Notes under the pieces: model-generated
Told to the model about the DNA's origin: nothing
Databases searched by the model: none
The model's input: only the letters and a program-made list of their open reading frames with translations
Translations under genes and position numbers: made by a program
Part shown: positions 14,011-64,000 of the stretch, one piece after another
Position numbering within the stretch: position 1 is the stretch's first letter
Layout: every line of letters begins with the position of its first letter
From: Lama guanicoe
Lineage: Eukaryota
Direction: 5' to 3'
NCBI GenBank assembly: GCA_013239625.1
Contig: MU053629.1
Coordinates: forward strand, 468,676 to 532,675
DNA length: 64,000 nt

Positions 14011-14148
14011 TTGTTTTTTGTTTTGTTTTGGCAGGGAGGTAGTTAAATTTCTTTATTTACTTATTTATTTAATAGATGTGCTGGGGATTGAACCCAGGAC
14101 CTCATGCATGCTAAGCCTGCGCTCTACCACTGAGCCATACCGTCCCCC
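14011..14148 (-). mobile_element. tRNA-derived SINE (Vic-1-like)
   Basis: Reverse-complement head GGGATTGAACCCAGGACCTC..GCATGCTAAGC..GCTCTACCACTGAGC, preceded by a T-rich tail; adjacent to a MIR fragment. Confidence 0.88.
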
Positions 14149-20098: not shown

Positions 20099-20275
20099 GG
20101 GGAGGGTATAGCTCAGCGGCAGAGTGCATGCTCAGTATGCACGAGGTCCTGGGTTCAATCCTCGGTACCTCCATCAACGAACAAATAAAAATAAATAAAT
20201 AATAAATAATGAAACCAATCCCATAAATAAAGAAAGAGAGGGAGGGAGGGAGGAAGGAAGGAAGGAAGAAAGAAA
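20099..20275 (+). mobile_element. tRNA-derived SINE (camelid Vic-1-like) with A/GA-rich tail
   Basis: GGGGAGGGTATAGCTCAGCGGCAGAGTGCATGCT..GAGGTCCTGGGTTCAATCC, with Pol III A box (about 20109) and B box (20152-61). The tail expands into (GGAG)n(GGAA)n. Confidence 0.88.
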
Positions 20276-54076: not shown

Positions 54077-54180
54077 GGGGAGGGTATAGCTCAGTTGGTA
54101 GAGTGCATGTTTAGGTCCTGGGTTCAATCTCCAGTACCTCCATTAGATAAATGAATGAATGAATGAATGAATGAATAAAT
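54077..54180 (+). mobile_element. tRNA-derived SINE (Vic-1-like) with internal deletion of about 10 nt and (TGAA)n tail
   Basis: GGGGAGGGTATAGCTCAGTTGGTAGAGTGCATGTTTAG|GTCCTGGGTTCAATC, with a 12-bp TSD TTATATGTGTTT (54062-73 / 54181-92). Confidence 0.88.
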
Positions 54181-57100: not shown

Positions 57101-59005
57101 CCTCTGCAGATCGTTTTTGCAGCTTTTGGTGATTTCCACATGTATAACTATATTGCTTGCAGCACCATTTCTCCCTGTGTCAGTTTTAGAAGCAGTTTCT
57201 TGGAGTCTTGCGATCACTGATTAGCTTGCTCTGACCGTCTGCATCTCCCTCCCTCTTGACGGCTGATTCATGCTTTCGGTCCTCCTGCTGTACCCTCAGA
57301 TGGCCCCTGCGGCCTCTTCCATACTTACTCTGTCTCCTAGAGACACTATTTCTTGTCCACCACCCTTCTCCCACCCGGCCTTTCCATTTCGGGGAGCTGT
57401 ACCTTTTAAATGTATATGCTCGGAGTTGATAATAATTATATTCTGTTCTTTAATCCCAGTAAGGGCTTCCATGATTTACCTGTAACTTGACTGCGAATGT
57501 TAAAACCAAGAAGCAGCATTTTCTCTGTTGTAATTAGGTGGCTGCCGTTCCCATGGCAGCCAGGTTGCGTGGAGGGCCGATATTCCTTCCTGTCTCAGCC
57601 TGCCGTCCTTACACCGAGGCCCCCTCCATGCAGACTTGAGTGGGTTCTGCCTTTCACATGGCACCAGCTGTCTTGAATGCAGCCTCAAGTTTTCCTAGAC
57701 TCAGGCTTCCCATCTCTCCTGGGCACCCACTATATTTTTGGAGGTCTCACTCCCACAGCACCCCATCCTCCACCTTTCAATGAGAACAGTGTGGTCTCTG
57801 TGTGTCTCTACGCCCGTGCTGATGGCCAGAAGTTTGTTCCCACTGTTGGAAACACAGCTTCAGGGTCTGGTGTCTCAGAAGGGACAATAGTCTGGTCTTT
57901 GAAATTAGCCACCATCTAATGAGGACCCATCGTGTTAGGTACCCAGGGACTAGAGGCTTGGTGTCTGTTGATAGCCTCACACCAGCCCCAGGGAACAGAT
58001 GTTACTACTTGACATTTTGTACATACAGGAGTTGAGCTTCTGAATGAGAAACCTCGAAGGTCTCCCCTGGGAAGTGCCTCTTAGATCCTGGGACAGGCTG
58101 GGGACCTGGTGCCAGCGGAAGTTGTGTAGGCTAGAGAAGACTTCTGTCTCTGAGCTGTCTTGCATGCTTTCTGCAGCCAACCTCCATCCTCCTCCCAGAA
58201 AGTCCTGCTGCTCCAGGAGAATGTGCACTGCTCTGGTCCCCAGCCTCAGCCTTGCTGTGGGCACACTGTGTGGCCACGAGCTGCTCATACGCAATGGCTG
58301 GAAATGGCATATCCTTCCTGACTGAGGTTCCCTTTGTGAGTCTGAAGTGAGAAAGAGGGCTTCATACTCAGCCCCGCTGGTGAGTTGGAAAGGCGCTTTG
58401 TCAGTGGTGGTGGCTGATCTGGCACCTGAAGTCTGTGCCCTTCGTTTAGTCCTGAAGTCCTTCATTTAGCGACCTCAGTGTAAGCTGTGTTTTGGTAGTT
58501 GTTTTAGGAAGACAGGAAGGCAATCAGGTTTTACTCTGAACACTTTATTTTCTCTCATGAATGCAGTAGTCTGCACGAATCTTCCGTTATAACTGTGTTT
58601 AGTGAGTTACTGTTGTGATAATGACCAGCTGGATGGCGGCTGGGTCCCTCACACCGTGCTGGCATTCTCCCCTCTCCGGGCTGCCGGCTTTCCTCACTTT
58701 GAAGATCCCAGGTGGAGCCTTGGCAGTGGAACCAGCAGTCTCTCCACTGTCGACCGGGGGGCTGGTCATCTGCTTTCTGAGCGACAGGTCGGTGACTGTC
58801 CGTGGAATTCCTCCTTGTTCCTCTGTTAGGTCAAGGCGGTGGCTTTAACGTGGGCTACTCGGTGGGATTTGTTCTCCAAACATCTTGACCTATTATGTTT
58901 ATGCCCCCAAATAAGTACTGAATGGAAAGGAAATCTTGATAGCCTTGCCTCGTTTAGTTACAGAGGGGCTATCTGGGGTTAGTGAAATCCAGACTGGACG
59001 AACAT

Positions 59006-59140
59006 CTGTAGTCAGCTCAGCTGACCGTGCTCGTCTCCCTGTGTGCGCCCAGTGTGCAGAGGCTGCAGACAGCAGCCTCTTCAGTAGTATATGCAGCCTG
59101 TTTTCTGTATGGGTTGCTCTCGTCGACCTTGGAGACAGCC
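59006..59140 (+). ncRNA. SNORA70: Retroposed copy of H/ACA box snoRNA SNORA70 (U70)
   Basis: 135 nt. The 5' stem CTGTAGTC (59006-13) pairs with GGCTGCAG (59061-68). H box ACAGCA (ANANNA) at 59069-74. The 3' hairpin upper stem is GCAGCCTGT...ATGGGTTGC. ACA box at 59135-37 lies 3 nt from the end. It matches recalled SNORA70 motifs (CCCAGTGTGC, GCAGCCTGTT, TGTATGGGTTGCTCT, GACCTTGGAGACAG) and is directly followed by RPL10 sequence, its known host gene. Confidence 0.9.
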
Positions 59141-59183
59141 CTTCCCAGCGGACATTCAGGCCCGGATGCCGTCCCCATCTTAG
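59141..59183 (+). other. Retained 3' part of the RPL10 snoRNA-host intron with 3' splice site
   Basis: 43 nt ending in ...CCGTCCCCATCTTAG immediately before GCTCCAG, where RPL10 homology begins (R-L-Q of DRLQTGMR). Confidence 0.8.
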
Positions 59184-59583
59184 GCTCCAGCCAGGTATGC
59201 GCAGTGCATTTAGGAAGCCCCAGGGCGCAGTGGCCAGGGTCCACACTGGCCAAGTCATCATGTCCATTCGCTCCAAGCTGCAGAACAAGGAGCAGGTGAT
59301 TGAGGCCCTAGGCAGGGCCAAGTTCAAGTTTCCCAGCCACCAGAAGATCCACGTCTCCAAGAAGTGGGGATTTCCCAAGTTTAATGCAGATGAATTTGAA
59401 GACAAGACAGAGAAGCAGCTCATCCCAGATGACTGTGGGGTCAAATACATCCCTCATTGTGGCCCCCTGGAGAAATTGCGGGCCCTGCACTCGTGAGAGC
59501 CTTGGCGCTGTCCCCTCCTTCACTCAGGCCCACCAATAAATCCTACTTTCCTGTCCAAAAAAAAAAAAAGGAAAAAAGAAAAA
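59184..59583 (+). pseudogene. RPL10: Partial processed pseudogene of 60S ribosomal protein L10 (uL16), C-terminal half plus 3'UTR and poly(A)
   Basis: Translation [63 protein letters not shown]...[11 protein letters not shown] matches the RPL10 C-terminus, with about 20 substitutions and a one-codon deletion versus the recalled human protein. There is no intron at CAGAAG|ATC (59346/59347). Stop at 59494-96, AATAAA at 59535-40, A-tail from 59557. Confidence 0.95.
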
Positions 59584-61466
59584 TGAATAGATAGGGATAA
59601 ATCTTTACCTTGTTGCTTTGGTAACCAAAGGCGAGTCTCCACATTTAAATTAGATAGCATTAAGCTGTCCAAGATTCCCCTGACATCATCTTGCTGTGAT
59701 TAATTCTGGCTTGGCAATTTGTGACTTTTATCTTGATTGATTGTAAGGATAGGAAAGAGTGCTAAGCAGAGTTGTAATCTGTGTGAGACATTTTTGGTTC
59801 CATTATACAAAGATCACTCATCTTCACAGTTTTATAGTTAAGTGATACTTGGGCAAAAGTGACTTAGGGGGAAAAATCCTTTGGGACAACTTAAATCTTG
59901 GTCAGACTTTAACCTAGGAATGTAGCTTTTAGAAGGCAGGGATAGAACCCAACCCTTCAGCAAGAGAAGGAAATAAGTAACATTTAAAAAGTCATTTTTT
60001 TTAATTACCTGATTCTAAACATCCCCCAAGTCCATTATATATTCTTCCGTTTATTTACCTCTCAGGAGCGAAGAATGACTCAATCTCCGCTGCAGGAGGA
60101 CTTTTGGCTCCAGGCGTCTGGGTCGTGCAGGATTCTCAGTTCATTTTGCTGTCCCTTTGGAGAGTTTAATGCAGGCATGGGGGACAAGCTGTGGGGAAGT
60201 GAGGCTCTTGTCCTCCCTGGTGGCCACTGTTCGCAGAAATTTGGATTCAGAGGAAATGTGTTCAGTACTCTGAACTAGGAAGGACAGAAATAAAACTTGG
60301 CTCTGGAGCATATAATGAGGCTGTTCTGTTTGGTCTGCAAGTTTCCAGGAAGAACACAGTGCAGAGGTGTCTTTGACAAATGTGCAGCAAGAGAGAGTAA
60401 GTTCAGAGGAAGAAGCAGAGACTTCTAATAGGGTAGAGTAGGCTTCCAAGAGAAAGGAGAATTTATTTCCGGGTTAATTGGTGTACGGGCTGCTCATAGT
60501 GGAGAAGACTGTAAACAGCAGCGGATTGAACAAGATAGCAGTTTATTTTCTCTTGATTAGAATGAAGGTCAGAGGTGGGTCCGCAGCTCCCAGTGCTTGG
60601 GCTCCTTCCAGGATGAGGAAATGTCACACCTTACTTGGGGGTGAACGTCTGCATTCAGCACTTAGGGCCAGAATCCTTTATAGACAGACTTACTCTTGAA
60701 CATCCCTTAGGAAGTTGCCACATTAGATGCCCGAATCCTAGCTCCCGGTCAGTCTAGCACAGCTTAGCGGGTTTTTCTCCAAGCATTGGACTGGCTTGCA
60801 GCTAAGTAGTTGGCTCCCATGTTTAAGGGCCATGTTGTAAACAGTAGAATTACTCTCAGCATCCAGATAGGACCCCAAGAGGCACTTAGAAACTGAACAA
60901 GCCCAGGCAACCATAAGTTCCTCCCTCCCCCCGCCACGGTCATTCTGGGGCTTATGGGCTCCCTGAGAGAAATGGGAGTGGAGTTGCCAGCCAGACTGAT
61001 TTATTCATATCTTTCTATTATGGAAACTTTCAAACATACCCAGAAGTGAAGAGAATTGTATAGTGAACCATGTGCCCATCACTCGGGTTCAATGATGATT
61101 AATTCTTAGCTAGTCTTACTTCATGCATACCCTTCTTTCTCTCACCAATTACTTTGAAGCACATTTTGCTATTTTTCCTCTATGTCTCTACAAGATAGGA
61201 TTTAAAAACATTTCTATGAAACCTTATCATACCAAAAACATGAACATCACCAATACCTCCTTTCTATCATTAAATAGCAAATTAATGTTCGCATTGCCTC
61301 AACTGTCTTATTCTTTTTTTTTTATTTCTTTGAATTAGGATCCAAATAAGGTTTACATATTGCAGTTGATTGACATGTCTGTAATCCCCTTCTAATCTGT
61401 AGGTCACCATTCCACCTTTTAACCCCCTTGTGATTTATTTAAGAAACTGGGTTGTTTGTCCATTAC

Positions 61467-61918: not shown

Positions 61919-62924
61919 GTTTTTTTTTAAACTTTTATACAATTTTTAAAGGTTAATTTCCATTTACAGTTATTACCTAATATTGGCTATATTCCCCATG
62001 TGGTACAATATATCCTTCAGCCTGTCTTACACCCAACAGTTTGTACCTCTGACTTCCCCACTCCTATATTGCCCCTTCACCTCCCCCAGTGGTAATGATT
62101 AGTTTGTTCTCTGTGAGTCTGCCTTTTTTTTGGGTTATATTCACCAGTTTTTGTCTTTTTTAGATTCCACATATAAGTGGTATCATGCAAAGTGTCTGTC
62201 TTTCTCTGACTTATTCACTTAGGACGATGGCCTCCAAGTTCATCTATGTTGTTACAAATGGCAAATTTTCATTCTTTTTTATGGCTGAGTAGTATTCCTG
62301 TGTGTGTGTGTATGTGTGTGTGTGTACACCACATCTTTTTTATCCATTCTTCTGATGGACACTTAGGTTGCTTCCTTATCTTGGCAATTGTCCATAATGC
62401 TGCTATGAACATTGGGGTGGATATACCTTTTCAAATTAGTGTGTTTTGTTTTTTGTTTTGATATGTACCCAGGAGTGGAATTGCTGAGTCATATGGTAGT
62501 CCTAGTTTTAGTTTTTTGAGGAATCTCCATATTTTCCATAGTGGCTGCACCAACTTACATTCCCACCAACAGTGTACAAGAGTTCCCCTGCGATCTATTG
62601 AAAGTCAGCCCTTGACACAAGGGTTTGTAAAATAACGAAGATAAGATTGAGGTAAAATAATAGAAAAAAAAAAAAAGATAAGAGCTCCCTTTGCTCCACG
62701 TCCTCCCAATATTTGTTATTTGTGGTCTGTTTGGTGATGGCCATTCTTACAGGTGTGAGGTCATCACGGTTTTGCTTTGCATTTCCCTGATAATGAGCGA
62801 TGTTCAGCATCTTTTCATGTGCCTGATGACTATGTGCATTTCTCCTTTGGAAACAATGTCTGTTCAGTTCTTCTGCCCATTTTTTAATTGGGTCTTTTTT
62901 TTTTTTTGATATTGAGTTGTATTG
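61919..62924 (-). mobile_element. 5'-truncated L1 LINE (3' end of ORF2 and 3'UTR), relatively young, interrupted by the 28S fragment
   Basis: Poly-T at about 61920. Classic antisense L1 motifs (GATTCCACATATAAGTG, GCTGCTATGAACATTGGGGTG, ACATTCCCACCAACAGTGT). The minus-strand ORF has ORF2 C-terminal-like text (PIKKWAEELNRH, LTPVRMA). Exact 11-bp TSD CTGTGTCTTTA at 61908-18 and 62925-35. Confidence 0.88.
62588..62679 (+). mobile_element. Retroposed 28S rRNA 3'-terminal fragment with A-rich tail (SINE28-like)
   Basis: CTGCGATCTATTGAAAGTCAGCCCTTGACACAAGGGTTTGT (62588-62628) equals the recalled last 41 nt of mammalian 28S rRNA with one CpG>TpG change. A-rich tail at 62629-62679. TSD AAGAGTTCCC (62578-87) / AAGAGCTCCC (62680-89). 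Confidence 0.9.
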
Positions 62925-64000
62925 CTGTGTCTTTAATTCAGTAGTGATTGTAAAATAGTCATATGCCAAATCGATCATTCTTTCCTTGTTTATATATGAG
63001 AATACTTACATAAAAAGGAATTTAATCACAACTACTTGTTTACTCTGAGCTTCACATAGGGAAGTCAGGATAAATGCTTGAGACTTTGCCTTTATTTTCA
63101 AAACAGTGACTTCCCTGGCAGCATCGTCTAGAAGTACATCTGAGGTTTTATTTTGGGGGAGCTTGTTTTCTTCTTTTGCACTGTTTAGTGTAGCTGACAT
63201 GTTTCAATTTAATATTCTTATTGATACTAAAAGTCTCCATATTTGGTCAGTGGAAACTAATTCAAGTTGACCGGTGGAAACTTAATTACTGCATCCTTTT
63301 GACATGACTTGTATTTTTGTATTTTTGTGTCCTTCCTGGTATGACACAATGTTACTGGCTTGTCTTATCCATTTTGTGCTCCAGACTCGATCCACTACTT
63401 CTCTGAGGAGCCCTGGTTCCTTTGAGTTTTTAGAAGGCATGTTGTAGAAACTAGGAATATTTATTACTATGGGTTTATTGTTATTCCTAAATCCTCTCAG
63501 TGAACTGAACTAGGAAATAGGTATGCATGTATGTGTATATTGTGTCTGTGTGTTTGTGTATATTGTGTCTGTATGTTTGTATGTGTGTGTGTGTACAGAG
63601 ATAAAACCAATTATTAATTCATACTAATATTGCCAAGTGAAATTCCGGGTTATAAGGTCTTTACTTAGCTTCATCAACTTTATATCTATAGCCTTTTATC
63701 CACCCGGAAATTCCAGTCCACTGATACCACCATGTTTTTTCATCTGCTTTGTCTCATGCTATATACACAACAGACTGTATTTTAAAGACATTTGGGATAG
63801 TTCTTTGTGATTGTGCCACCAGCTGGATACATAGTTAGGTTCATTGGTTTCATTTTTGTTTGTTTGTTTTTGGAGTTCCTTTTTTCAAATTCAACTTAGA
63901 TAATGTTGCACAATATTGTCAAGGTTTCCAAGTCTCACCCGTGACATAGGGCTTGCATATTCAGAGGTGTTTGCTTTTGCCTCAGTCCCTTCTCCGTCTT

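Follow-up and report, generated by a model that had tools for sequence, protein, structure and literature searches.

The H/ACA small nucleolar RNA U70 (SNORA70) is located within RPL10's penultimate intron in species ranging from fishes to human, and retroposed copies derived from this gene pair have been described in several mammals. Weber (2006, PLoS Genet, PMC1687206) defined the Type-3 U70 snoRNA retroposon (snoRT), which accounts for 30 of the 42 human RPL10 processed pseudogenes and is also present in rat, mouse, elephant and rabbit. Cleavage by an endonuclease, with subsequent exonuclease digestion as far as the snoRNA's 5' end, was proposed there as the source of such elements, and the TSDs of snoRTs were found to peak at 13–16 bp. 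The same architecture was reported independently by Luo & Li (2007, Nucleic Acids Res, PMC1802619), who derived H/ACA retrogenes from 'partially processed, exon-containing hnRNAs', illustrated the exon-containing design with the retrogene U70m (their Figure 1D) and counted U70, with 21 copies, as the most-copied human H/ACA snoRNA. Theirs is a human catalogue, and the sections of it cited here do not stress the snoRNA 5' end as the end of the template.

The RNAs that could give rise to such elements have been detected more recently. In ONT data the 5' ends of reads coincide with the starts of C/D snoRNAs, and for H/ACA snoRNAs they lie at the start or 2 nt upstream of it; the corresponding snoRNA-started poly(A) RNAs were named 3'-snoRT, and RPL10-SNORA70 is the H/ACA example that was quantified by ddPCR (PMC12152556, 2025). 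H/ACA forms of this kind have been tied to dyskerin binding and to the cSPA concept (PMC9394076, 2022); 5' RACE of EIF4A1-SNORA67 placed its end at the end of the preceding exon and not at the snoRNA (PMC9394076). SPA and cSPA RNAs are snoRNA-ended at the 5' side and polyadenylated at the 3' side (Wu 2016 and Lykke-Andersen 2018, as cited in PMC9394076).

The sequence analysed here is a 64,000-nt stretch of the Lama guanicoe genome, referred to below as the window. Positions 59006–59583 very probably represent an old, inactive Type-3 U70/SNORA70 snoRNA retroposon, that is, the retrocopy of a single RPL10 RNA molecule. Its parts, in order along the forward strand, are as follows.

59006–59140, + strand: full-length but decayed copy of the H/ACA snoRNA SNORA70 (U70), Rfam RF00156
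59141–59183, + strand: 43-nt remnant of the RPL10 penultimate intron 3' of the snoRNA, from the alignment with the parental gene
59182–59183, + strand: acceptor AG closing the intron remnant, from the parental alignment
59184–59346, + strand: RPL10 penultimate coding exon, 163 nt, from the parental alignment and Pfam Ribosomal_L16
59347–59496, + strand: coding part of the last RPL10 exon through the TGA stop, from the parental alignment
59494–59496, + strand: TGA stop, read from the sequence
59497–59557, + strand: RPL10 3' UTR up to the parental cleavage site, from the parental alignment
59535–59540, + strand: AATAAA, read from the sequence
59558–59583, + strand: A-rich tail of 26 nt including three G, without counterpart in the parental gene, from sequence and alignment

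The original prediction, which had described the locus as SNORA70, an intron remnant and spliced RPL10 3' exons closed by AATAAA and poly(A), was thus accurate in each of these parts and in their coordinates. The SNORA70 model, whose gathering score is 40, matches 59006–59140 on the + strand over its whole length (1–135 of 135; 105.1 bits, E 1.3e-19), so that the snoRNA named from the letters is also recognised by Rfam. Its 3' end retains the ACA box, with ACA followed by 3 nt, and the motif ACAGCA occupies what we take to be the position of the H box. The translated exons match the C-terminal part of Pfam Ribosomal_L16 (profile 81–131 of 132, E 7.4e-9). Two long open reading frames run across the element, 58915–59496 on the + strand and 58899–59453 on the - strand, and neither is accepted as a gene; the former is open because the RPL10 frame happens to continue through the snoRNA.

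The parental gene was sought in the window's own assembly (2.05 Gb) and was found on contig C3191: a multi-exon RPL10 with GT-AG introns and a frame that is open across the exons examined, whose penultimate intron hosts a SNORA70 of 145.5 bits, 44 nt 5' of the acceptor. Aligned with this gene, the window copy is collinear in every segment. The snoRNA is identical in 107 of 134 bases; the 43-nt intron remnant matches the parental 44 nt between SNORA70 and the acceptor end to end (32/43 identical); the penultimate exon aligns ungapped (146/163); the coding part of the last exon shares 135 of 150 aligned bases, with one 3-nt deletion; and the 3' UTR shares 54 of 60. The two exons are contiguous in the window at 59346|59347, a junction at which the parental gene carries an intron of 80 nt. 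Position 59557, the last templated base, is the parental cleavage site, beyond which the parental genomic sequence diverges and the A-run of the window begins. As the last intron is absent and an A-tail starts from the cleavage site, the copy must have passed through a spliced, polyadenylated RNA. The alignment with C3191 therefore bears out the earlier claim that 43 nt of intron and an AG acceptor precede an exon whose next junction was already spliced. On the SNORA70 model, two retrocopies elsewhere in the genome, L031 (C5737; 153.6 bits) and L032 (C4963; 150.2 bits), score above the parental locus itself (L033, C3191; 145.5 bits); the parental SNORA70 departs from the Rfam consensus just past what is presumably the H box.

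The part of the window that is homologous to the parental gene starts at 59005/59006. Upstream of this point, a BLAST comparison of 58700–59005 (306 nt) with the 10 kb surrounding that gene gives nothing above chance, its best E being 0.44, and local alignment of the last 110 nt upstream of 59006 with the parental upstream intron reaches a score of 9, as do 428 of 500 shuffled sequences. RPL10 intron homology upstream of 59006, to which the original prediction had drawn attention as the mark of an ordinary truncation, was looked for by both means and was not found.

The snoRNA of the window copy is much altered. Five consensus pairs are non-standard in the Rfam alignment, the copy scores about 40 bits below its parent on the SNORA70 model (105.1 vs 145.5), and its minimum-energy fold is no longer hairpin-hinge-hairpin. 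Because of these broken pairs, the lost score and the non-canonical fold, the copy looks dead and is presumably non-functional now. The copy has diverged from its parent by about 10% across the exons and by about 26% across the short remnant of the intron; at a typical mammalian neutral rate, this would correspond to an age of tens of millions of years.

Elsewhere in the window, three weak matches to the tRNA model, scoring 33.6–36.6 bits over the three, were recorded.

14081–14137, - strand: weak tRNA-model match
20102–20173, + strand: weak tRNA-model match
54080–54142, + strand: weak tRNA-model match

These are probably the heads of tRNA-derived SINEs and not tRNA genes. At 62595–63005 on the - strand there is an open frame of 136 aa whose likeness to the C-terminal part of LINE-1 ORF2 was judged by eye.

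Whether the snoRNA 5' end is a common starting point of such copies can be judged from the family as a whole. An Infernal census, which scored the best 42 of about 121,000 first-look candidates and whose counts are accordingly lower bounds, yields at least 26 SNORA70 loci above the cut-off in the genome, the parental gene and the window included, and all 26 span model positions 1–135. Against these loci a BLAST template built from the parental gene was run; it places 401 nt of upstream intron before the snoRNA and follows the latter with 44 nt of intron and the two exons in spliced form, so that the first nucleotide of the snoRNA is template position 402. Among the 26 loci listed, the parental one alone aligns upstream of the snoRNA. 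The alignments of 21 of the 25 non-parental loci start at template positions 390–406, i.e. from -12 to +4 nt of snoRNA nucleotide 1. The other four start at 421–448, and these late starts are alignment losses or a contig edge, because Infernal aligns model positions 1–135 at all four; one of the four opens a contig of 344 nt. At none of the 25 non-parental SNORA70 loci listed did BLAST show more than 12 nt of possible upstream intron, a count to be read with the reservation that copies with upstream intron may have been missed in the census, though the search does not disfavour them. The apparent 12-nt upstream extension of one copy, L040, falls within that copy's own TSD.

In 9 of the 16 full-length copies, defined as those reaching the poly(A) site, TSD candidates scoring at least 10 end between -2 and +6 nt from snoRNA nucleotide 1. 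The clearest abutting TSDs are those of L043, L036, L038 and L040, for which 0, 4, 8 and 13, respectively, of 240 cross-locus controls are as good; the TSD of L046 also scores highly, though in A-rich flanks. The pile-up of 5' ends that the original prediction suggested looking for is thus present among the loci listed, with TSDs abutting it in several copies.

The 5' flanks of the copies are mutually unrelated, save those of L039, L045 and L049, and the at least 26 loci therefore contain about 22 independent insertions of the same design. L039 (C3997), L045 (C2221) and L049 (C243) have common 5' flanks of 89–95% identity, and so represent either one Type-3 insertion that was later duplicated at the DNA level or redundancy in the assembly. 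L029 (C39922), on a 344-nt contig, could not be told apart in its hit statistics from the C3997 locus (L030, covered also by L039). The retrocopies are between 62.5% and 92.9% identical to the parent, so the insertions built up over a long time. Ordinary processed pseudogenes of RPL10, containing exons only, occupy at least seven loci; when these are set against about 22 events, the snoRNA-started form predominates, as it does in human.

Several members of the family differ in how much of the host transcript they carry. L034 (G000:C55230:17770522-17770700, - strand) consists of SNORA70 and the whole 44-nt downstream intron, its acceptor being followed at once by an A-run and exon sequence being absent; it looks like a Type-2 snoRT made from an excised intron tail and, at 93% identity to the parent, is comparatively young. 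L047 (C6804) likewise ends within the intron, and has no clear tail. L052 (G000:C5471:47260-47868, - strand) is a snoRNA-started retrocopy that retains the last RPL10 intron and ends in a short A-run; its identity is 74% to the intron-containing genomic template and 66% to the spliced one, and hence retroposition of the snoRNA-ended RNA sometimes took place while the last intron was still in it. Among the ordinary processed pseudogenes, L012 (C5492) and L013 (C7381) are missing the 141-nt exon situated just before the SNORA70 intron and join exon 4 straight to exon 6, in frame, which suggests an exon-skipped RPL10 isoform as their template. In L010, a 26-nt gap is located at the end of the same 141-nt exon.

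The flanks of the window copy are less clear than those of several siblings. No TSD abutting its snoRNA start could be recognised, the best score there being 5, which is reached by 223 of 240 controls. A gapped local alignment delimits the following segments.

58919–58970, no strand assigned: candidate 5' copy of a TSD, with its partner at 59584–59632
58940–59005, no strand assigned: 66-nt stretch separating the candidate 5' TSD from the start of the snoRNA, or 35 nt if the duplication reaches 58970

The similarity between 58919–58970 and 59584–59632, the best in the flanks and one to which the original prediction had already pointed, scores 15; among 1000 shuffles 1 attains this value, among 240 cross-locus controls 11 do, and an ungapped repeat finder returns several chance pairs of similar quality. 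The candidate 3' copy, 59584–59632, starts directly 3' of the A-rich tail. For the 66 nt at 58940–59005, no homology was detected with the parental RPL10 locus; comparison with the upstream flanks of the other copies gave a maximum score of 11, which 113 of 200 shuffled controls also reach; the rest of the genome returned the self match only; and Rfam gave no match at E up to 10. The RNA fold of this segment is unremarkable (z -0.91). A paralogous empty site was sought through repeats, and both flanks are unique in the genome at the sensitivity of the search.

These data bear on how the 5' end of the copy arose. The window element could be the chance product of 5' truncation, with reverse transcriptase stopping at the snoRNA 5' end while copying a full-length, capped, intron-retaining RPL10 mRNA. 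Truncation of this kind is common among LINE-1-mediated retrocopies, and a single copy cannot by itself separate the end of a template from the stop of the enzyme; moreover, full-length intron-retaining RPL10-SNORA70 transcripts do occur in human cells (PMC12152556). Random stops would, however, scatter the 5' ends, whereas 21 of the 25 non-parental starts listed cluster within the range given above, several copies have TSDs that abut snoRNA nucleotide 1, and the 12 apparent upstream bases of L040 belong to its own TSD. Chance truncation is consequently very unlikely. Because reverse transcriptase copies from the 3' end and has to traverse the whole snoRNA before it arrives at nucleotide 1, the pile-up, with its abutting TSDs, most likely marks where the template ended, not where the enzyme halted. 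A partial duplication of RPL10 at the DNA level, or a template-switch chimera of mature snoRNA and RPL10 mRNA, is more improbable still. The missing last intron and the A-rich tail at the cleavage site contradict the duplication. Joins of small RNAs with mRNAs or repeats by template switching are known (cited in PMC1687206 and PMC1802619), with nothing specific to this locus in their favour; here snoRNA, 43-nt intron remnant and exon are contiguous exactly as in the gene, which argues for one template and not two.

A variant of the snoRNA-started reading, involving the same kind of element, concerns the upstream boundary of the insertion. The retroposed unit might start near 58940 or 58971, after a real TSD at 58919–58939 or 58919–58970, and its first 35–66 nt would then be filler from non-templated addition, from a switch of reverse transcriptase to another RNA, or from repair synthesis at the 5' junction. 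The rarity of the flank similarity among shuffled sequences speaks for it, as do the position of the candidate 3' TSD straight after the A-rich tail, where it would be expected, and the lack of a TSD at the snoRNA start, which sets the window copy apart from 9 of its 15 full-length siblings. Against it, 11 of 240 cross-locus controls reach the same score, comparable imperfect repeats are scattered around the region, and the 66 nt match neither the parental locus, nor the other flanks, nor the rest of the genome, nor Rfam; a TSD of about 50 nt would also be unusually long for LINE-1, and a short one may simply have been lost at about 15% decay. The variant is for these reasons rather unlikely, and that the 35–66 nt separating the snoRNA start from the candidate TSD are anything other than target DNA appears somewhat more doubtful again. 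If they were not target DNA, the copy would record the retrotransposition machinery reaching the H/ACA-snoRNP-capped end, and the lineage would confirm that RNAs of this sort reach germline levels high enough to make them the chief route by which RPL10 is retroposed.

The preferred reading, a snoRNA-started template, may be set out as a sequence of steps. The template RNA very probably started with the 5' end of SNORA70, the H/ACA snoRNA encoded in the intron, and retained the 43–44 nt that separate it from the acceptor; the last intron of this RNA had been spliced out, and its 3' end had been cleaved and polyadenylated at the normal RPL10 site. Its 5' end may, as Weber (2006) proposed, have been generated by a cut further upstream in an intron-retaining pre-mRNA or mRNA, after which 5'->3' exonucleolytic trimming would have been blocked by the assembled H/ACA snoRNP. 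Integration was most likely carried out by the LINE-1 machinery, as the TSDs and A-tails indicate. The evidence thus supports as template a polyadenylated, snoRNA-started RPL10 RNA that had been spliced in part, as opposed to the mature mRNA or the mature snoRNA. The snoRNA-ended poly(A)+ template put forward in the original prediction likewise gains support from the pile-up, the abutting TSDs and the lack of upstream intron homology. A snoRNP block of XRN-type 5'->3' decay is a plausible source of the template 5' end; the pile-up fits a snoRNP-capped polyadenylated template of SPA/cSPA type, while the enzymology is not visible in a DNA fossil alone.

Compared with the systems described at the outset, the window copy shares with the Type-3 snoRT its start at snoRNA nucleotide 1 and the absence of upstream intron, the entire downstream intron followed by spliced 3' host exons, the poly(A) tail at the host polyadenylation site, and an identified parental host, the C3191 RPL10 with its intronic SNORA70. 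The dominance of this class is shared as well: about 22 events against at least 7 exon-only loci here, 30 against 12 in human (PMC1687206). It differs in coming from another mammalian genome and in having no clear abutting TSD. Ordinary RPL10 processed pseudogenes resemble it in that their exons are spliced, they carry a poly(A) tail and their insertions are dispersed; they hold upstream exons and contain neither intron nor snoRNA, whereas the window copy is snoRNA-started and has no upstream exon. The 3'-snoRT RNA is the living counterpart of the RNA that the fossil implies, and the data given for it in the cited parts of PMC12152556 were obtained on human material, from somatic cells, cancer cells and plasma, and neither from the germline nor from this species. 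SPA and cSPA RNAs follow the same design, in which a 5' snoRNP shields the polyadenylated downstream RNA from 5'->3' decay; their described ends are box C/D snoRNPs, while that of the window copy is H/ACA and is known from DNA only. The copy is therefore real but ordinary, since elements of this kind, the pairing of the two genes and the mechanism have all been published already. The novelty implied by the original prediction is not supported by this comparison, as the cited parts of Weber 2006 (PMC1687206) describe the architecture and propose the mechanism, and those of PMC12152556 the RNA.

The proper annotation of the locus is a SNORA70 Type-3 snoRNA retroposon with a partial RPL10 pseudogene, and not a snoRNA gene or a plain pseudogene; beyond annotation its significance is small. 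The census is a modest addition, in that about 22 independent insertions starting at SNORA70 nucleotide 1, as against at least seven ordinary ones, repeat the human ratio of 2006. It is also in keeping with the more recent finding of poly(A) RPL10 RNAs that begin at the snoRNA, and suggests a long-standing presence of RNAs of this kind in the germlines of mammals.
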